From an uncultured Alphaproteobacteria bacterium (GTDB taxonomy: Bacteria > Pseudomonadota > Alphaproteobacteria > CAAHEQ01 > UBA3637), in the NCBI GenBank assembly GCA_949292205.1, contig CASEYR010000001.1:155530-219529 (forward strand): DNA of 64,000 bases, read 5' to 3'. The position numbers and the translations under genes were made by a program. Shown here in pieces: positions 5,411-42,924 of the stretch; position 1 is the first letter of the stretch, and each line of letters starts with the position of its first letter. Under the pieces are notes generated by a model. The model saw only the letters and a program-made list of their open reading frames with translations, did not search any database and was not told where the DNA came from.

Positions 5411-6835
5411 CTAAATATCATTCAAATCCGGACTTTCTGTAACTAATTTTTGAATCTCTTTTGTTGCTTGCTTGACAGATGCCACAACTCCTGGACCGGC
5501 AATGCAGCCCCCACAACAGGCCATCACTTCAACCAAACATCCTTCGGCTTTGCCTGTTTTGGCATATTGCTTCAGTTGCTTTATTGTATCCCTTGTGAGT
5601 CCATCAATTCGAACCGGACACACCTCGCACGTATGGAGTGATTGAACGGCTCCGGCCACACCGCCTATTAAAGCAAATCCCCTGCCCTGTTTAGATGGTT
5701 TTGATGTTTCAGATTCGACACAATTAGCCGGAGTAACCTTTTTGACATCAAATAACGCTGTCAACTCTTTTGCATTTAAAACAAAATCGACTAAATCATC
5801 ATGCAAACCTTCTTCCCTTTTGGCCATGCAGGGGCCGATAAAAACCGTAATGGCAGATGCATCCCGTTTTTTGACTATCTCTGCCGTATAATGCATCGGA
5901 GTTTTGGTGTTTGAAACAAACGGCTTTAACTCCGGAATATGTTTTTTGACGGCCTCAAAATAAGCGGAACAGCAAGAGGTTGTCATAAAAGAATCGCCTT
6001 TTTTTAAGCGCTCTGCCAATTCATTTGCTTCATTTCGAGTCGTAACATCAGCACCTTCGGCAACCTCAATCACATCGGAAAAGCCAAGCTCTTTAACGGC
6101 AGAAAATAATTGTCCCACCGATACCCCATACTGCCCCAAAATTGACGGCGCTAACATTGCAACAACCTGTTTTCCAGAACGAATGGCCTTTAGAACATCT
6201 ATAATCTGACTGCGTGTTTGAATTGCTCCAAAGGGACATATCTTTGCACACTGACCACATTCAATACATTTTTCAGGATTTATAGTGGCAGTATCCGATT
6301 CGTTCTTAGCTATTGCCTCAACAGGACAAACGCCTATACAAGGGGGCTCTGTTTGGATAATCGCATGATAGGGACACGATTTTGCACAAATACCGCATTT
6401 TTTACACTTATCTCGGTTAATATGCGATTTACCGTTAATAAACTCTATTGCCCCGAAAGGACATGTCGTGCATGGACGTGCCAGACATCCTTGACACATA
6501 TCCGTGACAATATACTGTCTATCCGGACAATGATGACACAGAACTGATGCTACTTTTAAAACAGGCTCTTCCAACTGTGTTCGAGCTAAAGCTTTTTCTG
6601 CAGCCTCTTGCAGGGATAAACCACTATTCACATCTTCACTCAAAACCGCCACAACCCGAGCCGAAATCAGTTGTTTTAAATCACTTACCGATAATCTTGT
6701 CCCAGCCAATGCTTCCGAGGCAAGAGTGTCTGGTATTTTGGAAGTGGAAGACACAAAATTGTCCGAAAAAAAAGCTTGGATTACAGCATATAATGTTTTT
6801 TGTTCTAAATCAATCGTGTAATCCAAGCGTGGCAT
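5411..6835 (-). CDS. [FeFe]-hydrogenase-like protein (H-domain with diverged H-cluster motifs) plus ferredoxin-type Fe-S cluster domains
   Basis: Several CxxCxxCxxxCP motifs; L1-like MTTSCCSAY (canonical TSCCPxW), L2-like GPCMAKREE (MPCxxKxxE), L3-like EVMACCGGCIAGPG (ExMACxGGCxxGG). Confidence 0.65.
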   Translation of the reverse strand: MPRLDYTIDLEQKTLYAVIQAFFSDNFVSSTSKIPDTLASEALAGTRLSVSDLKQLISARVVAVLSEDVNSGLSLQEAAEKALARTQLEEPVLKVASVLCHHCPDRQYIVTDMCQGCLARPCTTCPFGAIEFINGKSHINRDKCKKCGICAKSCPYHAIIQTEPPCIGVCPVEAIAKNESDTATINPEKCIECGQCAKICPFGAIQTRSQIIDVLKAIRSGKQVVAMLAPSILGQYGVSVGQLFSAVKELGFSDVIEVAEGADVTTRNEANELAERLKKGDSFMTTSCCSAYFEAVKKHIPELKPFVSNTKTPMHYTAEIVKKRDASAITVFIGPCMAKREEGLHDDLVDFVLNAKELTALFDVKKVTPANCVESETSKPSKQGRGFALIGGVAGAVQSLHTCEVCPVRIDGLTRDTIKQLKQYAKTGKAEGCLVEVMACCGGCIAGPGVVASVKQATKEIQKLVTESPDLNDI

Positions 6836-6855
6836 TTCAAACTCCTTTTTGATAA

Positions 6856-8211
6856 TTATTCTGACTTTTTCTTGTTTTCTGCCAGAAACTGTTCCAGCCA
6901 GTGAATGTTATACTGACCATCAATAAATTCCGGATCAGCAATAATCTTTTGATGTAATGGAATTGTTGTCCGGATTCCTTCAATAACAAATTCCTCTAAA
7001 GCTCGACGAAGTCGCATCAAAACACCATTCCGCGTCCGACCATGCACAATCAATTTGGCTACCATACTGTCGTAGTTTGGTGGAACTGTATAACCGGCAT
7101 ACATACCCGAATCAACACGAACATCCAATCCTCCGGGAACATGCCACTGCCCGATTTTTCCAGGCCATGGAACAAATGTTTCCGGATCTTCGGCATTGAT
7201 CCGACATTCCATTGCATACCCGTTAAAGTGGATATCTTCTTGCTTATACCCTAACACGGCTCCGCTGGAGACTCGGATTTGATCACGCACAATATCAACG
7301 CCTGTTACAGCCTCGGTAATCGGATGTTCCACTTGAACACGCGTATTCATTTCCAAGAAATAAAATTGTCCGTTTTCATACAAAAACTCAATTGTGCCGA
7401 CATTGGAATAGCCCAGCTTTTTCATTGCATTGGCGGCAATCTCACCAATTTGCTTACGCTGTTCCGGATTAAGCGCCGGAGATGGAGATTCTTCGAGAAC
7501 CTTTTGGTGATTCCGCTGGAGAGAACAGTCACGCTCTCCCAAATGGACAACGTTTCCGTAGTTATCTCCTAAAATCTGAATTTCAATATGACGTGGTGTT
7601 TGCAAATACTTTTCAATATACACAACATCATTGGCAAAAGAGCTCTTTGCCTCATTCTTTGCCAGCGTAAATGCATCTGCCATTTCAGATGGATTATGGG
7701 CCACTTTCATCCCTTTTCCACCACCGCCGGCAGCTGCTTTGACAATAACGGGATAACCAATCTTTTCGCCCCACATGAGAGCGTCTTCAACCGTTTTAAC
7801 CTCCCCTTCCGATCCCGGAATGACCGGCAATCCGGACTCGATAGCAGCTTTCTTTGCCGTCACTTTATCACCCATCATCCGAATCATCTTGGGGCTGGGA
7901 CCGATAAAAGTAATACCATGAGCTTCAACCATCTCGGCAAATTCAGCGTTCTCTGATAGAAATCCATACCCCGGATGGATTGCATCAGCACCCGTCATAA
8001 TGGCTGCCGAAATAATAGCTGCTTTATTCAAATAGGAATCTTTAGCCGGTGCAGGACCAATACAAACAGCCTCATCAGCCAATTTGACATGCATGGCATT
8101 TGCATCAACCGTTGAATGAACGGCAACCGTCTTAATTCCCATTTCTCGGCAGGCCCGATGAATCCGAAGGGCGATTTCTCCACGATTGGCTATTAAAACT
8201 TTTTCAAACAT
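6856..8211 (-). CDS. accC: acetyl-CoA carboxylase biotin carboxylase subunit
   Basis: MFEKVLIANRGEIALRI N-terminus, ATP-grasp, full length 451 aa. Confidence 0.95.
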   Translation of the reverse strand: MFEKVLIANRGEIALRIHRACREMGIKTVAVHSTVDANAMHVKLADEAVCIGPAPAKDSYLNKAAIISAAIMTGADAIHPGYGFLSENAEFAEMVEAHGITFIGPSPKMIRMMGDKVTAKKAAIESGLPVIPGSEGEVKTVEDALMWGEKIGYPVIVKAAAGGGGKGMKVAHNPSEMADAFTLAKNEAKSSFANDVVYIEKYLQTPRHIEIQILGDNYGNVVHLGERDCSLQRNHQKVLEESPSPALNPEQRKQIGEIAANAMKKLGYSNVGTIEFLYENGQFYFLEMNTRVQVEHPITEAVTGVDIVRDQIRVSSGAVLGYKQEDIHFNGYAMECRINAEDPETFVPWPGKIGQWHVPGGLDVRVDSGMYAGYTVPPNYDSMVAKLIVHGRTRNGVLMRLRRALEEFVIEGIRTTIPLHQKIIADPEFIDGQYNIHWLEQFLAENKKKSE

Positions 8212-8817: not shown

Positions 8818-10077
8818 ATGCTAGGCTCGGTCATTATTAACAATGTTATGGGAAAGAAAATGACAGTAACTTATGAAGAACTTGCTCGTGGAATTGAATC
8901 TATTATCCCCGAAAACGGATTGAAAGAAAAATTGGCTATCGCCGAAAAGGAAAAACGCCCTCTAATTATTAAATTCGGAATGGATCCAACCGCTCCGGAT
9001 TTACACTTGGGACATGCTGTTGCTCTGAAAAAATTGAGACAATTTCAAGAAGCCGGACATGAAATTCACCTATTGGTCGGTGATTTTACGGCTGCTATCG
9101 GCGATCCAACCGGACGAAATACAACAAGACCTCCTCTATCACCCGAGGAAATTAAAGTAAACTCAAAAACTTACATTGACCAGATGGATAAGGTTATCGA
9201 CACCTCAAAAAATGTTAAAATCCGTTTCAACGGAGAATGGATGAGTAAGATGACTTTTTCCGATATTATTAAGTTGTTGGGAAAGGCGACGCTGGCTCAG
9301 ATGTTACAACGCGATGACTTCAGTAAGCGGTTTAAAGAGAATATTCCTATTTCTATGCATGAGCTGATTTATCCGTTAATTCAAGGATATGATTCCGTTG
9401 CTATGCACGCTGATATCGAATTTGGTGGCAGAGATCAGCTGTTTAACTGTCTTGTCGGGAAAACATTACAGGAAAGCTTCGGACAACCGGGGCAAGTTGT
9501 TATCGGAATACCTTTATTGGTTGGGCTTGACGGACAAATGAAAATGAGCAAATCCAAGGGAAACTATATCGGATTGACAGAACCCCCTAATGATATGTTC
9601 GGAAAAGCCATGTCTATTCCTGATGCTTTGATTCCAGAATGGGTGGAATTGGTTACTGATTGGACTCCTGAAAAAAAGGCAAATGCTGTTGCCGATTACA
9701 AGAATAATACAGTCAATCCAATGGAAATTAAAAAGAAAATAGCTTTTGATATCGTGCGTCAATATCATAGTCTTGAAGACGCCGAAAAAGCAGAACGCTT
9801 TTTCTATACACAGGTACAACAAAGAGGATTTGAAACAAAGGAATTCCAAGAGGTTAAAGCTTCTGATTTGGGACTTAAAACACCTTGTAGCTTGGTTGAT
9901 TTCGGCGTGGCCGTCATGCAAGGGCAAAGTAAATCTGCCATTCGTCGCTTGATTGAAAGCGGAGCCGTTGCCATTGACGGTGAAAAAGTAACGGATATCG
10001 GGACAACGGTAACCCCGACAGAGGATGGAATTAAAATAAAAATCGGGAAAAGAGGATTTTTTAATTTAAAACCGTAA
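8818..10077 (+). CDS. tyrS: tyrosyl-tRNA synthetase
   Basis: HLGH (HIGH-type) and KMSKS motifs, C-terminal S4-like domain. Confidence 0.9.
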   Translation: MLGSVIINNVMGKKMTVTYEELARGIESIIPENGLKEKLAIAEKEKRPLIIKFGMDPTAPDLHLGHAVALKKLRQFQEAGHEIHLLVGDFTAAIGDPTGRNTTRPPLSPEEIKVNSKTYIDQMDKVIDTSKNVKIRFNGEWMSKMTFSDIIKLLGKATLAQMLQRDDFSKRFKENIPISMHELIYPLIQGYDSVAMHADIEFGGRDQLFNCLVGKTLQESFGQPGQVVIGIPLLVGLDGQMKMSKSKGNYIGLTEPPNDMFGKAMSIPDALIPEWVELVTDWTPEKKANAVADYKNNTVNPMEIKKKIAFDIVRQYHSLEDAEKAERFFYTQVQQRGFETKEFQEVKASDLGLKTPCSLVDFGVAVMQGQSKSAIRRLIESGAVAIDGEKVTDIGTTVTPTEDGIKIKIGKRGFFNLKP

Positions 10078-14655: not shown

Positions 14656-16182
14656 ATGTTACACAAAGCGTCTAGGGAAGCAGAACAGGCAATTAAAGAG
14701 GCTATTCAAAAAACGCCTTTGGATTTAAAAGTATCCGAAACAAGTTCAATCATATCTATCTCGGCCGGAACAGCGGAAGTTTCGGGCCTTTCAAAGGTTC
14801 AAATGAACGAGTTGTTGACCTTTAAAGATAACACAATCGGTATGGTTCAAACCTTAATGCAGGACAGAGTCGGTGTCGTCTTTTTGACGAATGCCGATCA
14901 CTTAAAAGCCGGTGATAAAGCCAAACGAACGCATCGCGTGTTAGATGTTCCTGTCGGAGATGCTCTGTTGGGACGTGTCATCAACCCATTGGGACAGCCC
15001 TTGGATAATAAAGGCGCCATTCCGACAACGCAAACTTATCCGATTGAACGAGAATCTCCTCCGATTATGCATCGTGCTCCGGTGGATACACCGTTACAAA
15101 CGGGACTGAAAGCGATTGATTCTTTTACGCCCATCGGACGCGGACAACGTGAATTGATTTTAGGTGACAGACAAACCGGAAAAACAGCTATTGCTTTGGA
15201 TACAATGATTAACCAAAAAGAATCCGGTGTTATCTGTGTCTACTGCGCTATCGGTCAACGCGCTGCAGGAACGGCTCGTGTTATTGCCGACTTGGAAAAA
15301 TACGGCGTCATGGAAAACACAATCGTTGTTGTTGCCTCGGGTGATGATGAAGCCGGCATGCAATTTATTGCTCCCTATGCGGCAACTTCTATCGGCGAAT
15401 ATTTTATGGAAAAAGGAAAAGATGTCTTAATTGTTTATGATGATTTGACGGCTCATGCCAGAGCTTATCGCCAAATGTCCTTGCTATTGAGAACACCTCC
15501 GGGACGAGAGGCTTTTCCGGGAGATATCTTCTATATTCACTCTCGACTCTTGGAACGGTCAACACACTTACGTCCGGAGTTCGGTGGTGGTTCCCTCACC
15601 TCTTTGCCGATTGTGTCAACCGAGGCTGGAAATATATCCGCCTATATTCCGACAAACATTATTTCTATTACCGACGGACAAATCTATCTGTCGACTTCTT
15701 TATTCCAAAAGGGGATTCTGCCGGCTATTGATACGGGACGTTCCGTTTCTCGTGTCGGTGGTGATGCTCAATTACCGGCTTATCGGAGTTTGGTCGGTCC
15801 ATTAAAATTGTTTTTCTCACAGTTTGAGGAGTTAGAGTCCTTTGCAAAATTCGGGACCCAAATGGATCCTGAAACGGCCGGACGGTTAAAACGCGGAAAA
15901 GCTATTCGGGCCGTTATGCAACAAATACAATATGCTCCTTTACCAGCTGCCGACCAAATCGCTGTCTTTTTGGCTACGAATGAGGGATTGTTGGATGATG
16001 TAGATGAACGTCAAAGTGCTTTGGCTCAGAAAATTATCATCCATGTTTTACATTCCAAATTCCCTAAGGTTATCACCAGTATCGTTGATAAAAGAGAAAA
16101 ATTATCAAATGATATAAAACAAAAGCTGTTAGATGCTTTCCGAAAAGCCTTGGCAAATGAAAAAGGATTAAAAACAGAATGA
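14656..16182 (+). CDS. atpA: ATP synthase F1 alpha subunit
   Basis: P-loop GDRQTGKT. Confidence 0.95.
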   Translation: MLHKASREAEQAIKEAIQKTPLDLKVSETSSIISISAGTAEVSGLSKVQMNELLTFKDNTIGMVQTLMQDRVGVVFLTNADHLKAGDKAKRTHRVLDVPVGDALLGRVINPLGQPLDNKGAIPTTQTYPIERESPPIMHRAPVDTPLQTGLKAIDSFTPIGRGQRELILGDRQTGKTAIALDTMINQKESGVICVYCAIGQRAAGTARVIADLEKYGVMENTIVVVASGDDEAGMQFIAPYAATSIGEYFMEKGKDVLIVYDDLTAHARAYRQMSLLLRTPPGREAFPGDIFYIHSRLLERSTHLRPEFGGGSLTSLPIVSTEAGNISAYIPTNIISITDGQIYLSTSLFQKGILPAIDTGRSVSRVGGDAQLPAYRSLVGPLKLFFSQFEELESFAKFGTQMDPETAGRLKRGKAIRAVMQQIQYAPLPAADQIAVFLATNEGLLDDVDERQSALAQKIIIHVLHSKFPKVITSIVDKREKLSNDIKQKLLDAFRKALANEKGLKTE

Positions 16183-17084
16183 CTCTGGAAGCTTTAAATA
16201 AACGTATCAAAACAACAACGGATTTACGTGACATTGTCAGTACAATGAAAATGCTCTCGTCCGTTAGTGTCGGGCAATACGAAAAAGCTCTTGCCTCTTT
16301 AAATGAATATGGGGCAACGGTTCGAAAAGCTTTCCAAGGTTTATTAAAAGATGACTCCTTTATCTATACACCTAAAAACATTAAAACAAATCGCCCTAAA
16401 ACAATTGCGGTGATTATCGGAACAGATAATGGTCTTGTCGGACGATTTAACAGAGATGTCCTAACTTTTGCAAAACGCAGTTTAAAAGAACGAAATTGCC
16501 TAGAGGAAACAGTAGCTATATGTGTCGGAAAACGTATCGGTTTAATGGTACAATCAGCCAAAATGTCCGTTGCGACAACGTATCCGATTATGAACTCGTT
16601 AAAAGAAATAGCTTCAATCGCCTCTATGGTTTTGATTAAGTTGAATGAGATAATCACTAAACAACGAATTGATCAAGTATTGGTTTATTACACTTATCGT
16701 TCGACCGGAGAACAGCAACATGTTGTCGTTAGACAGCTAATGCCTTTGCCGGCCGATGATTTAATTGACTTGAAAAAGGAAAAATGGGATGGACGAACAC
16801 TCCCCTTAATTACGGGTGACAGAGAGGCTTTGTTTTCAGCCTTAAGTCATGAGTATTTGACCGTTATTTTGGCTCATGCCTTAACCGCTTCTTTGGCTGC
16901 AGAACATTATACGCGTATGGTGAATATGCAACAGGCAGAAAAAAATATTGATGAATCCTTGGAAAATATGAATTTAGAGTATCAACAATTACGACAAACG
17001 AATATTACCGATGAATTAATTGATATTGTATCCGGGGCCGAAAGTATGAAAAAAAAGAAAATAAATCTAAATAACCCTTTATAA
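16179..17084 (+). CDS. atpG: ATP synthase gamma subunit
   Basis: Gamma-like N-terminus (LRDIVSTMKMLSSVSV), operon position, start overlaps alpha stop. Confidence 0.7.
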   Translation: MTLEALNKRIKTTTDLRDIVSTMKMLSSVSVGQYEKALASLNEYGATVRKAFQGLLKDDSFIYTPKNIKTNRPKTIAVIIGTDNGLVGRFNRDVLTFAKRSLKERNCLEETVAICVGKRIGLMVQSAKMSVATTYPIMNSLKEIASIASMVLIKLNEIITKQRIDQVLVYYTYRSTGEQQHVVVRQLMPLPADDLIDLKKEKWDGRTLPLITGDREALFSALSHEYLTVILAHALTASLAAEHYTRMVNMQQAEKNIDESLENMNLEYQQLRQTNITDELIDIVSGAESMKKKKINLNNPL

Positions 17085-17151
17085 CACTTGACAATAGAAT
17101 AAAAAAAGGATAGTAATTACTATATTATCAACAAGAAAGGAAATATATATT

Positions 17152-17445
17152 ATGATCAAATCAGAATTAGTTACTAATGTTGCAGAAAAAAACGATTTAA
17201 CCAGAGCTGATGCAGAACGGGTTGTTGCAACAATTTTGGATACAATTAAAGATGCCTTAATTCAGGGAAACAGAGTTGAATTGAGAGGTTTTGGTGTTTT
17301 GTCTGTTCGGACGCGCAAGCCTAGACTTGGCCGTAATCCTAAAACAGGCGCTCAGGTTCAGGTTGAGGGAAAACGTGTCCCTTTCTTTAAGGCAGGCAAG
17401 TCTGTCAATGACGCCCTAAACAAAAAAGCTAAAAAAGGCGCATAA
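17152..17445 (+). CDS. HU/IHF-family DNA-binding protein (IHF-beta-like)
   Basis: RGFGVLSVRTRKPRLGRNPKTGAQVQV beta-arm signature. Confidence 0.8.
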   Translation: MIKSELVTNVAEKNDLTRADAERVVATILDTIKDALIQGNRVELRGFGVLSVRTRKPRLGRNPKTGAQVQVEGKRVPFFKAGKSVNDALNKKAKKGA

Positions 17446-17448
17446 GCT

Positions 17449-18294
17449 ATGAACTGGATTACCAATCTGACGCGACCGACGGTCAAGAAAGTTAATATTC
17501 ATGCCGATATCCCCGATAATTTCTGGGATAGATGCCCAGGGTGTGGGGCAATGCTCTTTCATGAAGAGATAAATAAAACAGACTATGTTTGTCCACGGTG
17601 TAATCATCACTTTCGTTTGCCTCCGTTGCGTCGGTTGGAAATGATCTTTGATAATCAGGAGTATACTCTGATTCAATTGCCAAAAGTCAAAGAAGATCCT
17701 TTGCATTTCTGTGATTTAAAAAAATACACTGATCGCTTAAAAGATGCCAGAAAAAAAACAAAAAGCGATGATGCTATTTTGGTTGCCCATGGTAAAATAG
17801 GTGGAAAACCGGCTGTTGTTGGTGTTTTTAACTTTAACTTTATGGGCGGTTCAATGGGAACTTATGTCGGTGAAGCTATTGTGACAGCGGCTCAATTGGC
17901 CTTGTTGCAAGAAGCGGCTTTAATTTTAATCCCTGCTTCCGGTGGTGCCCGTATGCAAGAAGGAATGCTTTCCTTGATGCAAATGGCTCGCACAACGGTT
18001 GCTGTAAAACGACTTAAGAAAAAGAAGTTACCATATATTGTCGTTCTGACAGATCCAACAACCGGCGGTGTAACAGCTTCATTCGCTATGTTGGGGGATA
18101 TTACTTTGGCCGAACCAGGTTCTGTTATTGGATTTGCAGGCGCTCGGGTCATTGAGCAAACTATCCGACAGAAATTACCGCCAAACTTCCAAAAGGCAGA
18201 TTATTTGTTAGATCATGGCATGATTGATCAAGTTGTTCCGCGTAAAGATTTACGAAAGAAATTGATTCAAATTTTAGGATTATTACTAAAATAA
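17449..18294 (+). CDS. accD: acetyl-CoA carboxylase carboxyltransferase beta subunit
   Basis: N-terminal zinc ribbon CPGCGAMLF...CPRCNHH; carboxyltransferase domain. Confidence 0.9.
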   Translation: MNWITNLTRPTVKKVNIHADIPDNFWDRCPGCGAMLFHEEINKTDYVCPRCNHHFRLPPLRRLEMIFDNQEYTLIQLPKVKEDPLHFCDLKKYTDRLKDARKKTKSDDAILVAHGKIGGKPAVVGVFNFNFMGGSMGTYVGEAIVTAAQLALLQEAALILIPASGGARMQEGMLSLMQMARTTVAVKRLKKKKLPYIVVLTDPTTGGVTASFAMLGDITLAEPGSVIGFAGARVIEQTIRQKLPPNFQKADYLLDHGMIDQVVPRKDLRKKLIQILGLLLK

Positions 18295-19390: not shown

Positions 19391-19420
19391 AGCCCCTGCT
19401 GAAAATAGCAGGGGCTTTTA
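19391..19420 (+). terminator. rho-independent terminator of dehydrogenase gene
   Basis: agcccctgc-tgaaaata-gcaggggct then TTTA. Confidence 0.6.
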
Positions 19421-19566
19421 CGATTTGAACGTAACACTACCCGCGTAAGCGGGTAGATGTAGACATACCAACCCAACCGTAAGGCTTACGGAGCTTTGGG
19501 GCTAGGCAAACGAAGTTTGAATAGGCTAATACCACTTGCGTTAGCGAGTGGAGGTTTATTTTTTGA
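19420..19566 (+). repeat. structured intergenic repeat family, copy 2 (full length)
   Basis: About 80% identical to copy 1, with compensatory changes in two stems (cccgc/gcggg versus cctgc/gcagg; caaac-gaa-gtttg versus cgaacg-t-cgttcg). Confidence 0.7.
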
Positions 19567-37550: not shown

Positions 37551-37646
37551 CATAAACTTCCACTCGCTAACGCAAGTGGTGTTATCTGTTCCGAACGACG
37601 TTCGCCCAGCCCAAAAGCTTCGCAAGCCTAACGGCTGGGCTGGTAT
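37551..37646 (-). repeat. structured intergenic repeat family, copy 3 (5'-truncated, reverse orientation)
   Basis: Reverse complement matches copy 1 from ataccagcccagcc... to ...gcgagtggaagtttat, lacking the first hairpin and the 9-nt duplication. Confidence 0.6.
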
Positions 37647-38496
37647 GTTAAAACATCATAAGATAAGATGGATCATGTCTCTTTTGACTCCTCATGATTG
37701 ATGGTTTAAATTAAATATAGAAATGAGTATATAAATACTTTTTTTAAAATGCAAGCAAAAAGTATTATCTCCTTATTTTTAGAGTTTTCAATGACATTGA
37801 TTAAAAACACGCGGTACATCCCTATACAATATCCTTTAAAGGTATATCCATAGCGTTATAGATATAAAGTTTTACAAAAATAAATATTAAAAAACTCCAA
37901 AAGAGTATCTTTTTCGTTTTTCAGGAAAGATGATTATAAGGAGATTTACGAATTGTGATACCCGTTAAAATCAATCCGAAATGGTTTTTTTTATTGTTTT
38001 ACAATTGGTTGTGTGGATTCGATAATTACCCTTGTAGAAAGAGTATATAGCTGTAAATTATCAAACTTTTGGGGTGTGTTTTTTGTAAAAAAATAAGTGG
38101 GATTAGCTTAAAAAAGTTGATATTTTTTTTATTTCTTGTTAAAATTGACTACCAAGATTTTATTACATCAAATATCACAAGAGGCACTATGAACCATTGG
38201 ACAGAACTAAGTATTGAATACGCAAATCAGAAAAGTTACTTAGATGATCTTTTCTCTGTTTATCCAACTATTCCAAAGGGTATTAGGGATATTAACCAGT
38301 TGATGTGGAACAAAGTTGAAACTTTTGTAATGAACGGAATAATGAGGAACTTGTAACTTCTTGTCATAAGGGCAGGTTTAGATGAATTGTTCAAATTGTG
38401 ATTGAAAGGAAAGGCTTTCAATTAAACGATATAAATCATCAATTTCTTTGAAATGATTAGCTCGGTATTCGCAAAGCACGCTGTACCAAAAATTGT

Positions 38497-38523
38497 AACC
38501 ACTCGTTCAGAGTGGTTTTTTTG
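38497..38523 (+). terminator. rho-independent terminator-like hairpin
   Basis: aaccactc-gttcag-agtggtt followed by a T7 run. Confidence 0.5.
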
Positions 38524-38537
38524 TATTAGTTGGATAT

Positions 38538-38612
38538 CTGGTGACATACTACCGCTTGGATTCTAGTGACATACTACCGCTTGGATTCTGGTGACATACT
38601 ACCGCTTGCCAC
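38538..38612 (+). repeat. 3 x 25-bp perfect or near-perfect tandem direct repeats (iteron-like) upstream of pilin-like gene
   Basis: ctggtgacatactaccgcttggatt / ctagtgacatactaccgcttggatt / ctggtgacatactaccgcttgccac. Confidence 0.8.
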
Positions 38613-38903
38613 ATCTATATAAAAGGAATCTTTTGACAATCTATTTCCTTAACACCCCATTTCCTTGATTCCGTTGCCCAATTGGCTGACGTTAAGTTAA
38701 TATCTTTTGATTAACTATTATTAAGCAGAATTTTCATAATCTGCTCTTTTCTGACAAATCGTATTGTTGAAATCCGATCGTTCCATAAAAATGGAACTAT
38801 AACAAATTCTTTTTAATAAATGAATCTAAACATCACAAATCTATTGACTTTCAAAATGGTTTATGACATTATGAAAAAAAGTATTAACGGGGAGTATTTT
38901 GTT

Positions 38904-40322
38904 ATGCGTAAAGAACAAATCAGTATGGAATCCGGACGGAGTATGGTTGAGGTCTTGGGTGTTCTGGCTTTGGTCGGATTACTGACGATTATGGGAATTA
39001 TCGGCATATTCTTTGCCATTGACAAAAATATGGCTAATACCATTGTTCACGATTCAAAAATTGCTTTTATGGAGATGAAAACGCCGTCAACAAAACCCTC
39101 TTTAGAGTGGAGCTCTATTTTATTCCAGCCGGTTTCCCAAAAAACAATGACCGTTCGTCGTGATTTTTTAGGGCGAGATTTTGTAAAAGCCGACAATATA
39201 GACCAAGGCGTTTGTAGACAAATGCTGAGTATGCGGGTTGAAAATGTCTTGAACTTTTACAACTTGGATAATACCGAGATGACTTCGTGTCTTGAAACAA
39301 ATGATATTATTATAGATTGGAATGGATTTGGTCCCCCTGCCGTTTGTCAAACCGTGTCGGATTGCGATGTTCCGAATGAACCGCCTTTTGAAGGAATCTG
39401 CTCTGATCAGGGACAATGCCAAGCTTGCCCCACCTATCAAAAACCAAACGCGAATCGCACAGCGTGTGTTTGTGATCCGGAACAAGCCGTCACTTGCACC
39501 TTAAATCAGGAAAATTGGTGTTGCGGTCCGGATTTGATTTGTGGCGATACTGTCGGCGAATGTATTGAGTCAAACTATACATGTGCCTATAACTTTTACC
39601 CGAACGGAGCACCCGGCACAATCTTTTACACAGATTGTAGTTATGTCGTTTCCGATCAAAACAATGTGTCGGAATATGGCGGGGATTGCACCTATGTCAT
39701 TCAAGAAACCGGAGATTCCAACAAGTGGGTAGACGGCACGGGAACAGAGCAAACGATTTACAAACCAGCCTCCGGCAATCGTTTTGCAACAGCCGGAAAA
39801 GGATGTCCCGCCAATCAATATTGTGCCGTTTTATGGGTTGACGATGACGGCGTTTGGAAGGCCGGTGAAACCAAAACGGCTCCTAACAATGCAACCGGTG
39901 TTTTATGGGGAAAATGTCAAATGTTATCTTCCTATGACCAAACCCCTATCACAAAATACAAAAACGGTTACGGCTTGGTAACGGTTAATCAGGGATGTCC
40001 GGCAGATCAATACTGTGCCGTTTTATGGACGTTACAGGAATGGACACCCGATATACAAACGCCAAAGGCCCCCAATGATGCAACGGGTATTTTATACGGG
40101 CGGTGCCAAATGTTATCTGCCTATGAACAAGAACCGTTATCCAAAAATGAAGCCGGAAACACCCGTTATCAAGTGGTTCAGGGATGTCCCGCCAACACCT
40201 ATTGCTATCTGAATTGGGAAACGGATACCGATTGCACCACCGTTTCCAACGATAAAACAGGGACAATTTATGGGGCCTGTGCCCAACTGAACAGTCGAGG
40301 AACTTGCCCGTATGAGAAATAA
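38904..40322 (+). CDS. prepilin-like N-terminus, Cys-rich secreted protein with three ~60-aa internal tandem repeats
   Basis: GGGGAG RBS; MRKEQISMESG|RSMVEVLGVLALVGLL (Gly then Glu at +5, hydrophobic helix; Flp/type IV prepilin-like, atypical Arg at +1); repeats QGCPAxQYCAVLW...NxATGxLxGxCQMLSxYxQxP; stop overlaps avd start. Confidence 0.55.
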   Translation: MRKEQISMESGRSMVEVLGVLALVGLLTIMGIIGIFFAIDKNMANTIVHDSKIAFMEMKTPSTKPSLEWSSILFQPVSQKTMTVRRDFLGRDFVKADNIDQGVCRQMLSMRVENVLNFYNLDNTEMTSCLETNDIIIDWNGFGPPAVCQTVSDCDVPNEPPFEGICSDQGQCQACPTYQKPNANRTACVCDPEQAVTCTLNQENWCCGPDLICGDTVGECIESNYTCAYNFYPNGAPGTIFYTDCSYVVSDQNNVSEYGGDCTYVIQETGDSNKWVDGTGTEQTIYKPASGNRFATAGKGCPANQYCAVLWVDDDGVWKAGETKTAPNNATGVLWGKCQMLSSYDQTPITKYKNGYGLVTVNQGCPADQYCAVLWTLQEWTPDIQTPKAPNDATGILYGRCQMLSAYEQEPLSKNEAGNTRYQVVQGCPANTYCYLNWETDTDCTTVSNDKTGTIYGACAQLNSRGTCPYEK

Positions 40323-40710
40323 TGAGGTTCTGCCCATTTACATAGAGGCCTATAACCTAACCCAGGATATTTTTAAGAAAACCGTCAAGTTTCCAAAAGA
40401 ATACAAATTTTTACTGGGAACACAGTTGAACGAGGCATCAATAGAGCTATGCTGCCTGATAACCAACACCGCCAGAGCGGCTCAAAAATCAGTGTTGTTG
40501 GAAGGTATTTTAAACCAGTTGGATAAAATAAAAATTGAATTCAGACTCTGTGCGGATTTTAAACTGTTAAGCAACCAACAACAGGCATCCATAGCCACAC
40601 GTTTAGAGAAAATAACGGGACAAGCGATTGCCTGGTTGAAAAGCGAAAGGAGGAAACAATCCATAACAAGTATGCCGGAGTCAGGAACAACTCCGAGTTA
40701 TCCTGAGTGA
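40312..40710 (+). CDS. avd: accessory variability determinant (Avd)-like small protein
   Basis: 132-aa predicted helical basic protein immediately upstream of TR and RT, as in DGR avd-TR-brt cassettes. Confidence 0.55.
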   Translation: MRNNEVLPIYIEAYNLTQDIFKKTVKFPKEYKFLLGTQLNEASIELCCLITNTARAAQKSVLLEGILNQLDKIKIEFRLCADFKLLSNQQQASIATRLEKITGQAIAWLKSERRKQSITSMPESGTTPSYPE

Positions 40711-40808: not shown

Positions 40809-40917
40809 CGTGCCCAGTGCAAATAATGCATATAACGTGAATCTTTCTTCCGGTGCGGTCAACAACAACAATCGTGACAACAACAACACCGCCCTCTGCG
40901 TTGGATTCTGAGCTTTT
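40809..40917 (+). other. DGR template repeat (TR), 109 bp, adenine-rich (AAC/AAT codon runs)
   Basis: Matches reverse complement of 42538-42646 at 98 of 109 positions; all 11 mismatches are A in TR. Confidence 0.85.
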
Positions 40918-40942: not shown

Positions 40943-42310
40943 ATGGAACAACTAAACTTTTACGATTTAGTATCTGATTTAACATTACAAGAGGTCTTTC
41001 AGTCCTATTTGGATTGTCGTCGAAACAAACGTCGTAGTTTGTCTTCTTTGCGTTTTGAAAGAGAATACGAACATAATCTGATTCGATTGTATGATGATAT
41101 TATACGCCGACGTTATCAGAGCCGCCCCTCCAAGGCCTTTATTGTGGATAAACCAGTCCAACGAGAGGTGTTTGCCGCCGATTTTCGGGATCGGATTATC
41201 CACCACCTAATCATCGGGTATTTAATGCCCGTGTTTGAACGTATTTTTTTAAATGAATCATACAGCTGTCGCGTCGGAAAAGGGACTCTATTCGGTATTC
41301 AATCCTGCGCTCAAATGATGCAAATTTGTTCCAATCATTACACAACGGATTGTTATGTGTTAAGGCTGGATATTCACGGCTTCTTTTTTCATATAGATAA
41401 ACGTATTTTATATCGAAAATTGAAACAGTTAATCGATACGCAATACCATCATGTAAATAAATCGACCATCTTGTTTTTAATCCGAGAAGTGTTGCGCGAT
41501 AATCCGACTGAAAATTGTAAAATCAGCGGATCTAAAAGCGCATGGATTGGACTTCCAAAAACAAAAAGCCTGTTTTTCAGCGGCCGAAACAAAGGACTTC
41601 CCATCGGTAATCTGACCAGCCAAGTTTTTGCCAATTTTTATTTGAATGATTTTGACCATTATGTCACTGGGTTGGATAAAGATTTGTTTTATGGACGATA
41701 CGTCGACGATATCGTCATTATGCACCCCAGCCGGGAGTATCTGCTTCAAGTCAAACAACACATCGACACTTATTTAAGGCAAGAGCTGGGGTTAACATTA
41801 CACCCGAAAAAGGTATCATTACAACATTATGCCAAAGGGTTCGCCTTTGTCGGCGCCTATATCAAACCCGGACGCGTTTATCCTGGCAAAAGGTTGCGTC
41901 GATCATTTTATTTAAAGATGCAACACCTGAACACGTTATGGGAAAACAACACACAAAAAATGAACCGAGCGTTGCTTGAAAAGACGTTATCAAGCATCAA
42001 TTCTTATTTTGGGTTATTAAAACACTTTGACGCCTGGCGGATCAAATTAAAGGGATGGAATATGTTAAACGAACAAATCCGAAGTGTTTTTCGAACAAAT
42101 GAACGGTTAAACAAAGTCTGGATAGAGCCCCAAACAAAACGCCAGATGATTGATGATGCCCGAAAAATGTTCACAGAGCCACTCAGGTATCCCAAGAAAT
42201 ATAAAAATCTTGTCCAAAAATGGAATCGCCTGTCACCGGAAGAGGCACTCAAATCTTGTTTAGGTCCTTCTTACATCACGATACCAGAAGACGAAAAAGA
42301 ATCCACTTGA
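40943..42310 (+). CDS. DGR-type reverse transcriptase
   Basis: RT motifs including LPIGNLTSQVFANFYLNDFD (DGR hallmark IGxxxSQ) and FYGRYVDDIVIM (YxDD). Confidence 0.9.
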   Translation: MEQLNFYDLVSDLTLQEVFQSYLDCRRNKRRSLSSLRFEREYEHNLIRLYDDIIRRRYQSRPSKAFIVDKPVQREVFAADFRDRIIHHLIIGYLMPVFERIFLNESYSCRVGKGTLFGIQSCAQMMQICSNHYTTDCYVLRLDIHGFFFHIDKRILYRKLKQLIDTQYHHVNKSTILFLIREVLRDNPTENCKISGSKSAWIGLPKTKSLFFSGRNKGLPIGNLTSQVFANFYLNDFDHYVTGLDKDLFYGRYVDDIVIMHPSREYLLQVKQHIDTYLRQELGLTLHPKKVSLQHYAKGFAFVGAYIKPGRVYPGKRLRRSFYLKMQHLNTLWENNTQKMNRALLEKTLSSINSYFGLLKHFDAWRIKLKGWNMLNEQIRSVFRTNERLNKVWIEPQTKRQMIDDARKMFTEPLRYPKKYKNLVQKWNRLSPEEALKSCLGPSYITIPEDEKEST

Positions 42311-42430
42311 GATGCATTTGCATACTGTAATGCGATTGGAGAACGTTTGATTGACGCAACGACAGAGTGTGTTAAAACGATGTGGACAGGCGAAAGTGGA
42401 ATTGGGAAAAGAGGAAAAGACCGAGGATAG
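42311..42430 (+). pseudogene. decayed fragment of a C-type-lectin-like DGR target paralog, in frame directly after the RT stop
   Basis: Translates DAFAYCNAIGERLIDATTECVKTMWTG, compared with SAFAWCDAIGGQLIDITTECIKTTGTTG in the intact target (about 65% nt identity); no start codon. Confidence 0.5.
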
Positions 42431-42537
42431 CAGGGAAATAAAAACGGCCGCTTCGCGGCCGAGACCTGTCCGCCGGGGACGTCGGACAGGAAAAAAAGTC
42501 TGCCATAAAAGGCAGACTTAGTTAAAAAAATGTTAAT

Positions 42538-42646
42538 AAAAGCTCAGAATCCAACGCAGAGGGCGGTGATGCTGCTGTCACGATTGCTGGTGGTGACCGC
42601 ACCGGAAGAAAGATACACGAAATATGCATAAATTGCACTGGGCACG
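42538..42646 (-). other. DGR variable repeat (VR) at 3' end of target gene
   Basis: Cognate of TR; substitutions A->T x6, A->C x2, A->G x3 relative to TR, none at non-A positions; 3' 27 nt identical to TR. Confidence 0.85.
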
Positions 42647-42924
42647 TTTTGTGTCCATACCAAAGCACTTCCAGTCTCTGTTAAATTCGGGCACCCCGTT
42701 GTTCCGGTTGTTTTAATACATTCCGTTGTTATATCAATCAGCTGTCCCCCGATTGCATCACACCAAGCAAAAGCACTCCACCAATTCATATTAGTATTAC
42801 TTTGACAATAACGGGTGCCGTCCAAGCCCGTCACAACGGTTCCACTACCCCCCGCGCATGATTCGGCAACCGCCGATGTTGACAACAAAACAGATAAACA
42901 AATCATCCCTATGTATTTTTTCAT
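42544..42924 (-). CDS. DGR target: small secreted C-type-lectin-fold-like variable protein (126 aa precursor)
   Basis: Sec signal MKKYIGMICLSVLLSTSAVA; WSAFAWCDAIGGQL motif (CLec-like WxxAxxxCxxxGxxL); C-terminal 34 aa encoded by VR. Confidence 0.8.
   Translation of the reverse strand: MKKYIGMICLSVLLSTSAVAESCAGGSGTVVTGLDGTRYCQSNTNMNWWSAFAWCDAIGGQLIDITTECIKTTGTTGCPNLTETGSALVWTQNVPSAIYAYFVYLSSGAVTTSNRDSSITALCVGF

Follow-up and report, generated by a model that had tools for sequence, protein, structure and literature searches.

The question raised by this locus is what kind of protein is encoded directly upstream of a diversity-generating retroelement (DGR) of an uncultured Alphaproteobacteria bacterium, and how this protein is related to the DGR. 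The locus lies in a stretch of 64,000 nt (contig CASEYR010000001.1, positions 155,530 to 219,529; hereafter termed the window), in which an open reading frame (ORF) at 38904-40322 of the plus strand overlaps the start of avd, the gene for the DGR accessory protein. An initial annotation described the product of this ORF as a prepilin-like, Cys-rich repeat protein, which may be an adhesin coupled to the DGR or a former target of it. The analysis shows that the product of the ORF is a modular protein of the type IV (type IVb-like) pilin family and that the DGR rewrites the C-terminal region of a separately encoded lectin. The reading favored here, with a probability of roughly 0.55, sees in this protein a type IVb minor pilin of modular build, by which the DGR-diversified lectin is displayed or exported.

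The longest frame containing the ORF (38820-40322) encodes 500 aa, and the ATG at 38904, from which 472 aa are encoded, is the start that agrees with the N-termini of the homologs in the alignment. A Shine-Dalgarno-like GGGGAG (38890-38895, plus strand) is read from the sequence 8 nt upstream of this ATG. The protein starts with MRKEQISMESG↓RSMVEVLGVLALVGLLTIMGIIGIFFAI, in which the arrow marks the predicted cleavage site. A class III signal peptide is defined as a hydrophilic leader that ends with Gly or Ala and is followed by approximately 21 mostly hydrophobic residues with Glu at +5, and a type IV pilin has the shape of a 'lollipop' with an alpha1 helix of approximately 50 residues on an antiparallel beta-sheet head (PMC8179133). 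The hydrophilic leader of the window protein (aa 1-11, 38904-38936) ends with a Gly at −1 that is conserved in the family, and RSMVEVLGVLALVGLLTIMGIIGIFFAI provides both the hydrophobic stretch and Glu at +5. Hydrophobic windows of 19 aa with a mean Kyte-Doolittle value of >1.6 start at residues 11-26, such that the hydrophobic tract spans approximately residues 14-40. The Gly at −1 is present in all of the 117 distinct N-termini of the family, at a position left free by the search pattern, which prescribes R at +1, S/T at +2, M at +3 and E at +5. In these N-termini, the residue at −3 is E/Q in 97%, that at +14 is G in 91% and that at +24 is Y/F in 96%. In independent alignments of 44 and 90 sequences, S13, M14 and E16 do not vary, and the conservation of R12 is at least 90%. 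The pilin module (aa 12-145, 38937-39338), which is delineated by the AlphaFold2 (AF2) model, by hhalign and by weak N_methyl matches in relatives, starts with RSMVE, continues into the hydrophobic alpha1N helix and ends with a beta-strand head carrying Cys129 and the invariant Cys104. In the AF2 model, a helix of 45 residues (aa 13-58) is followed by this small beta head, with a predicted local distance difference test (pLDDT) score of 81 for the full-length protein. When the N-terminal module is modeled alone, the pLDDT is 89 and the predicted template modeling (pTM) score is 0.76.

The pilin identity of this module is supported by its relationship to a small protein encoded at the related locus L111 (13333-13905; loci of relatives are denoted by L and a number). 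This protein, which has the same N-terminus, scores 57 bits against Pfam PilS (cut-off 22) and 47 bits against Bundlin (cut-off 22.3). PilS and Bundlin are type IVb major-pilin families. Alignment of the family profile to this protein by hhalign gives a probability of 99.4% and an E-value of 5e-22 over 57 columns, covering only the leader and alpha1, so that the window protein is linked by homology to a protein that passes curated pilin models. Because the same N-terminus is present on PilS/Bundlin-scoring pilins encoded beside a pilus operon, the N-terminus of the window protein represents a type IVb-style prepilin signal, as its initial description as prepilin-like had anticipated. The Pfam N_methyl model weakly matches 49 of 90 relatives, in all cases below the threshold (best E-value, 0.0095), and the sole match of the family profile among the sequences of the Protein Data Bank (PDB) is a type IV fimbrial protein, which aligns in register with an E-value of 0.31. 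The head domain of the window protein has diverged past sequence recognition.

The pilus operon is found in relatives. In L023 and L040, a distance of 9 kb separates a T2SSE/T2SSF pair from a family member, and when this T2SSE ATPase is used as a query on metagenome contigs, an operon is recovered that encodes a TcpQ-like protein, a secretin, a PilO-family protein, one further protein, T2SSE and T2SSF. The operon continues with genes for one or two proteins of 175-194 aa, counted from the cleavage-site Gly, with the GRSMVEMLGVLAIIGVLS N-terminus in L105, L108, L111 and L112. T2SSE and T2SSF are also encoded in the metagenome-assembled genome (MAG) SIG53, in which an ortholog of the pilin-lectin pair described below is present as well. 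No canonical G-F-T-L-I-E pilin is found in the related loci searched. In L111, the type IVb pilus operon is preceded by two TrbC/VirB2-like pilin genes (1129-2505), and a gene for a 321-aa PilT-like ATPase (16225-17190) is located downstream of the pilin genes; the L111 pilus may be retractile and encoded near conjugation-type genes.

The more specific proposal of a Flp-like protein is not upheld. Like Flp/Tad pilins, the window protein has a leader ending with Gly and Glu at +5. Flp pilins are, however, proteins of approximately 50-80 aa with a G↓xxxxEY motif that are associated with TadB/TadC, whereas the window protein consists of 472 aa, has E-V/M-L (V/M/I and then L in the family) in place of EY, and has a 45-residue helix with a beta head. 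In addition, its family is linked to TcpQ, a secretin, PilO, T2SSE and a two-domain T2SSF platform protein, and no Tad-type genes are seen. The Flp/Tad reading of the 472-aa protein is therefore ruled out by size, motif and associated machinery.

The region following the pilin module consists of three parts. The first is a Cys-rich stalk (aa 148-227, 39345-39584) that contains 13 Cys residues, is EGF-like in appearance and is delineated by Cys conservation; these Cys residues are invariant or nearly so among 44 aligned orthologs, and the equivalent region of some paralogs matches EGF_TEN/EGF_2. The second is a series of short 'DCSY.V' beta-hairpin repeats (aa 227-299, 39582-39800), which are recognized in the alignment, are modeled as beta strands and differ in copy number between homologs. 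The third is an array of three repeats of approximately 63 aa each, detectable in DNA as well as in protein. Unit 1 (aa 300-363, 39801-39992) has the pattern GCPANQYC...YGxCQMLS, and is followed by unit 2 (aa 364-426, 39993-40181) and unit 3 (aa 427-472, 40182-40319), which is a short form with five Cys residues. The protein, which was correctly described as Cys-rich with three tandem repeats, contains 28 Cys residues in total. The repeats are a feature of the family and not a product of chance, because the 44 orthologs carry one to four units of 54-69 aa. The five-Cys form represented by unit 3 looks ancestral; one Cys pair is lost from the two internal units of the window protein.

A search with the repeat unit identifies no known unrelated domain. 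The profile of the unit gives only chance-level matches to PDB sequences (phage decoration proteins, E-values of 0.35-0.76), and the C-terminal 332 aa match only LsrG (E-value, 2.3). When 1.84 billion cluster representatives are searched exhaustively, the C-terminal region is detected in only 73, and most of the full-length proteins among them share the N-terminal motif of the family or have a closely similar one. The C-terminal module is rare and lineage-restricted.

The gene is followed on the plus strand by the DGR core. The avd gene (40312-40710) is assigned from bAvd and NF033474 matches, which are weak but specific and both below the curated cut-offs. Its ATG falls within the pilin-like gene, with which avd shares 11 nt, as originally noticed, such that the stop codon TAA (40320-40322) of the latter lies within avd (ATGAGAAATAA). 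The template repeat (TR) of 109 nt, containing 30 adenines (40809-40917; repeat analysis and TR scan), and the gene for the 455-aa reverse transcriptase (RT) (40943-42310; RVT_1, E-value 1.3e-18) follow, and this RT falls in a clade of RTs from Alphaproteobacteria MAGs. The variable repeat (VR), identified by TR/VR comparison, is located on the minus strand (42538-42646), where it forms the C-terminus of a 126-aa secreted protein (42544-42924) with a Sec signal peptide and six Cys residues, as assigned from its ORF, the TR/VR relationship and its homologs. This protein has no Pfam family match and shows a minimal C-type-lectin-like pattern, MNWWSAxxWC...CPN...VWT...ALC. Two terminator-like hairpins (42445-42519, minus strand) are located downstream of its gene by consensus scan. 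Within the TR/VR span, TR and VR differ only at TR adenine positions, and when both strands of the 64 kb are scanned with the non-A positions of TR, 42646-42538 of the minus strand is the single match (100%), the next best match being 47%. These results show that the DGR rewrites only the C-terminal ligand-binding region of the lectin. The initial annotation had not linked this opposite-strand lectin to the pilin-like gene, for which it is a partner even where no DGR is present (see below).

Because the best other match in the non-A scan is only 47%, the pilin-like gene contains neither a VR nor a relic of one, and the initial observation that it lacks a VR holds. The same scan bears on the proposal that the gene was once a DGR target and no longer has its VR. 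It is located directly upstream of avd, which is the usual position of a target. However, it shows no residual similarity to TR, its C-terminus is not lectin-like, its orthologs without a DGR have the same architecture, and an intact target, in which the differences are A-specific, is available to the DGR. The proposal is therefore barely credible.

A relic of the middle of the lectin gene (lectin aa 51-77) is present in inverted orientation directly downstream of the RT stop codon (42313-42400, plus strand; 65% over 29 aa by tblastn, and inverted repeat I2). Because L171 has an intact lectin gene at the position and in the orientation of this relic, the convergent arrangement of the window probably arose by inversion or duplication from an L171-like ancestor.

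The order pilin-like gene, avd, TR, RT and lectin is shared by four lineages, such that the pilin-like gene has a conserved position beside avd/RT across independent DGRs. The RTs of these lineages are 57-77% identical and the pilin-like proteins 29-58% identical. In the window, the pilin-like and avd genes overlap by 11 nt and the lectin gene is convergent. In L171, of which the RT is 77% identical to that of the window, the overlap is also 11 nt (ATGCGCAATAG) and the lectin gene is co-directional. In L009 (RT identity, 58%), the overlap is 1 nt (TAATG), and in L174 (RT identity, 59%), the genes are separated by 8 nt; the lectin gene is convergent in both. A consensus scan finds no plus-strand terminator-like site between the pilin-like gene and avd in the window. 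Because the order and the overlap recur and no terminator-like site separates the genes, co-transcription and translational coupling of the pilin-like gene with avd are predicted with good support from comparison, and the coupling to the DGR suggested at the outset is corroborated in this comparative sense, with the order in four lineages and the stop/start overlap in three. Of two further RTs of the clade, the fifth (L172) has a gene with the GRSMVE motif directly downstream, and the sixth (L173) has no pilin-like gene within 5 kb.

Two of these loci have further features. In L174, four to five tandem copies of a unit of approximately 199 nt (6462-7359) are located between the RT gene and the convergent lectin target, and a related segment of 83 nt is present upstream (2197-2279). 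In L172 (4676-7518), no avd is called, and the GRSMVE pilin-like gene starts right after the RT gene and is cut by the contig end. The product of this gene could be a fusion of pilin and lectin and, as such, the target of the DGR.

A large pilin-like gene and a small lectin gene are adjacent at 15 loci, counted among all examined loci with sufficient flanks (window, L001, L003/L004, L005/L007, L006, L008, L009, L011, L012, L086-L090, L171 and L174). The lectin gene is either co-directional or convergent, and the chromosomal neighborhoods of these loci are otherwise unrelated. The only exception among the loci with sufficient flanks is L081, in which no lectin homolog is detected by tblastn beside the large gene. 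The pilin-like gene and the small secreted C-type-lectin-like gene are thereby shown to form a conserved two-gene module. In L054, L073, L048, L045 and L037, a pilin module is fused to the same lectin domain through a Cys-rich linker (hidden Markov model E-values of 5e-12 to 6e-9), and L037 has two such lectin domains. These fusions indicate that the separately encoded pair works together and that lectins are presented on pilin modules in this lineage. Most pairs, including those of L006 and L001, which are close relatives with the gene order of the window, have no DGR, and no TR is found within the flanks of L001 and L006 that were searched. The DGR is therefore an add-on and not a part of the pair.

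These results also bear on the possibility that the DGR landed by chance beside an unrelated surface-protein gene, so that the avd overlap has no functional meaning. Chance adjacency would be compatible with the predominance of pairs without a DGR and with the L173 RT. It is very improbable, because the same order recurs in four lineages at the RT and pilin identities given above, with the overlap in three of them, because the L172 RT also has a GRSMVE gene beside it, and because the target of the DGR is the conserved partner of the pilin-like gene itself.

Two additional observations concern the closest DGR-less relatives. A dispersed intergenic element of approximately 155 nt with four to five GC-rich hairpins is present in the window at 1509-1662, 19416-19560 and 37552-37648 (reverse strand, partial), in L006 at 9430-9595 and in L001 at 9523-9619. 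Its 97-nt core is 99-100% identical across genomes of which the flanks are only approximately 75-84% identical. In L001 and L006, this element occupies the gap between the pilin-like and lectin genes, which is the exact site of the DGR in the window. It has no Rfam match. The block of 97 nt in common with L001/L006 represents a hairpin repeat that is dispersed, and does not correspond to an RNA gene from any known family. The element may be REP/MITE-like (a repetitive extragenic palindrome or miniature inverted-repeat transposable element) or may act as a bidirectional terminator. The second observation is a mosaic divergence at 38927-40291. The pilin-like gene of the window is 85% identical in nucleotide sequence to that of L001 and 69% identical to that of L006 over the first 1.1 kb, and this relationship is reversed in the downstream flank, which is 84% identical to that of L006 and 71-76% identical to that of L001; a neighboring 214-aa protein is 98.6% identical to its L006 counterpart. 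The L006 ortholog has four repeats versus three in the window. This mosaic divergence suggests that the adhesin gene has been exchanged between lineages by recombination.

The favored reading, in which a minor pilin displays or exports the lectin, can be formulated as follows. The promoter of the pilin-like gene would drive pilin, avd, TR and RT as a single transcript, and a prepilin peptidase would cleave the pilin after Gly11. The cleaved protein would become a minor pilin, at the tip or as initiator, of a type IVb filament, and its C-terminal repeat array would bind the soluble lectin. This binding would create a hypervariable surface at the pilus tip, or would allow export of the lectin through the pilus system, in the manner of CofB with CofJ and TcpB with TcpF. 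CofB of the CFA/III pilus (colonization factor antigen III) of enterotoxigenic Escherichia coli (ETEC) handles the secreted partner CofJ (PMC6048534), and TcpB of the toxin-coregulated pilus (TCP) of Vibrio cholerae handles the secreted partner TcpF (PMC9565799, PMC10120004). Like the window protein, CofB and TcpB are large pilins (approximately 45-55 kDa) with an N-terminal pilin module and beta-rich C-terminal domains. They are co-encoded with a small Sec-secreted protein, which they bind and which is then brought to the pilus tip or exported (PMC6048534, PMC9565799); the window pair is likewise co-encoded, and its binding is proposed by analogy. The machinery of the relatives shares the type IVb hallmarks of these systems, namely a TcpQ-like protein, PilO and PilS/Bundlin pilins. 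Unlike CofB and TcpB, the window protein has C-terminal domains with no detectable sequence similarity and no significant structural similarity to the beta-repeat and beta-sandwich/H-lectin kind of these proteins, and the pair is scattered around the chromosome instead of being located within a pilus operon. Unlike CofJ and TcpF, the partner is a C-type-lectin-like protein that is diversified by a DGR.

A more specific version, in which the Cys-rich repeats of the minor pilin dock the lectin non-covalently and the embedded DGR keeps rewriting its binding site, so that the two proteins form a two-component hypervariable pilus-tip adhesin, is tentative, and the odds are somewhat against it. Because avd and RT would be translated from the mRNA of the pilin itself in such a system, the capacity for diversification would be expressed together with the scaffold. 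The role as a pilus-tip adhesin is putative, and the binding of the lectin by the repeat array is proposed from the adjacency at 15 loci and from the fusion paralogs.

Alternatively, the protein may be a secretion adaptor, that is, a minor pilin or pseudopilin that carries the lectin out through the secretin, such that the diversified lectin is a free soluble factor. The Sec signal of the lectin is an ordinary one and an anchor is absent, the associated operon includes a secretin, and it is established that TcpF is secreted through TcpB in a TCP-dependent manner (PMC9565799, PMC10120004). This alternative is unlikely, because paralogs that carry the lectin covalently on the pilin module suggest that the lectin works attached to a filament, and because a freely diffusing hypervariable lectin has no obvious benefit for the cell that produces it.

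Several observations weigh against the minor pilin reading. No pilus machinery and no prepilin peptidase is encoded in the 64 kb by Pfam scans of ORFs of at least 150 aa, as had been stated initially. The wider search for a peptidase and for pilus loci has a divided outcome: pilus loci are found, on related contigs and in MAG SIG53, whereas no A24 prepilin peptidase is detected by motif and Pfam searches in the window or in approximately 2 Mb of related loci. The pilus operon is located on contigs other than those bearing the pilin-lectin pair, and most pairs, as described above, have no DGR. The promoter- and terminator-like sites around the pilin-like gene are consensus matches only. With Arg at +1, the cleavage site would be unusual among prepilins. 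The window protein matches no Pfam or NCBIfam model, including N_methyl (PF07963/TIGR02532), at E-values up to 1. A Foldseek search of the PDB with the full-length and N-terminal models gives no significant match; TcpB (7w63_B) is ranked fifth, with a non-significant E-value of 0.26 and a TM score of 0.10.

The atypical Arg, the missing peptidase, the failure to match N_methyl and the Foldseek result all speak for an alternative in which the N-terminus is an uncleaved signal anchor that only tethers a Cys-rich domain, periplasmic or at the surface, in the inner membrane; the protein would never enter a filament and would serve as a membrane receptor or folding partner for the lectin. This explanation is nevertheless distinctly unlikely. 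The invariant Gly at −1 and Glu at +5 within a transmembrane helix are unexpected for a plain anchor, and the same N-terminus is present on PilS/Bundlin pilins adjoining a pilus operon. Moreover, type IVb pilins are known to vary at +1.

The proposed minor pilin with its diversified partner would combine two known kinds of system, a modular type IVb minor pilin and a DGR-diversified adhesin system. In the R64/IncI1 thin pilus, PilS is the major pilin and a shufflon varies the PilV minor-pilin adhesin. As in R64, the small members of the present family match Pfam PilS, the operon encodes a PilO-family protein, and a putative adhesin of a type IVb pilus is coupled to a dedicated device for diversification at the DNA level. 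Unlike the shufflon, the DGR acts by mutagenic retrohoming and not by site-specific inversion, and it acts on a separate lectin and not on the C-terminus of the minor pilin. As in the modular type IV pilins PilB and PilC of Streptococcus sanguinis, additional modules are grafted on the C-terminus of a pilin, a tinkering strategy described previously (PMC8179133). Unlike in these pilins, the G↓RSMVE motif is non-canonical, with Arg at +1, and escapes IPR012902/PF07963, and the repeat module has no database signature. [quoted passage not shown] Unlike in Bacteroides, the filament would be of type IV, and a candidate for the 'additional factor' is encoded in the cassette itself, with predicted translational coupling to avd.

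Upstream of the pilin-like gene, a promoter-like site (TTGACT-17-CATTAT, with TG; 38844-38872, plus strand) is found by consensus scan and is set apart from the upstream DNA by a terminator-like hairpin at 38497-38517, which is also found by consensus scan. Three tandem copies of a 25-nt unit, TCTGGTGACATACTACCGCTTGGAT, are located at 38537-38611, just downstream of this hairpin and approximately 230 nt upstream of the promoter-like site, and may represent a regulatory binding array. A 95-aa ORF (38069-38356, plus strand) matches only the first 44 positions of the model for the Tsp45I type II restriction enzyme (E-value, 2e-16) and looks like what is left of a restriction gene that was located upstream of the cassette. 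Rfam and tRNA scans give nothing relevant near the pilin-like gene.

The window protein belongs to a much larger family. Nine full-length relatives are found in the first search and approximately 45 with a profile, none of which is annotated, whereas a very large family is defined by the first 110-140 residues. Matches to GRSMVE[IMV]L[GA] are present in >599 stretches of genome contigs, nearly all from MAGs of uncultured gut Alphaproteobacteria, and at least 761 proteins belong to the G↓RSMVE family at an E-value of <1e-10, annotated only as 'hypothetical'. In 85 loci, 120 matches to the GRSMVE pattern are found, often several per genome, in proteins of 120-1642 aa, and paralogs carry lectin (CTLD), discoidin (F5/8 type C) or EGF-like modules. 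The family is lineage-specific and greatly expanded in uncultured gut Alphaproteobacteria, and its small members are PilS/bundlin-type major pilins.

Two sets of family members have unusual arrangements. In L073, four tandem genes (16013-18191), on the same contig as a pilin-lectin fusion gene, encode proteins of 120-131 aa with the GRSMVE N-terminus and a Cys pair. Their size and layout are consistent with major pilins, and antigenic variants of one another may be encoded in this array. In the relatives P0005 and P0019, the first approximately 195 residues are kept at 83-84% identity and the sequences diverge beyond them; P0005 runs on into a glycosyltransferase family 8 domain and P0019 stops at 232 aa. 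Either close relatives have alleles that are rearranged or truncated, or the two sequences are chimeras of the assembly.

Small secreted C-lectin proteins account for many of the chromosomal DGR targets, and for the question of how they are delivered to the cell surface, the cassette described here names a concrete and testable candidate partner. It connects DGRs with type IV pili, two subjects for which no common paper is found in the literature searched, and no mention of the G↓RSMVE motif is found there either. If the two-component version is true, no earlier case of a DGR built into a type IV pilus would precede it, the system would be a retroelement counterpart of the PilV shufflon of R64, and the non-canonical prepilin motif G↓RSMVE would define a large hidden pilin family of gut Alphaproteobacteria. 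This family is invisible to current pilin models, and its proteins probably dominate the surface biology of this uncultured gut lineage.

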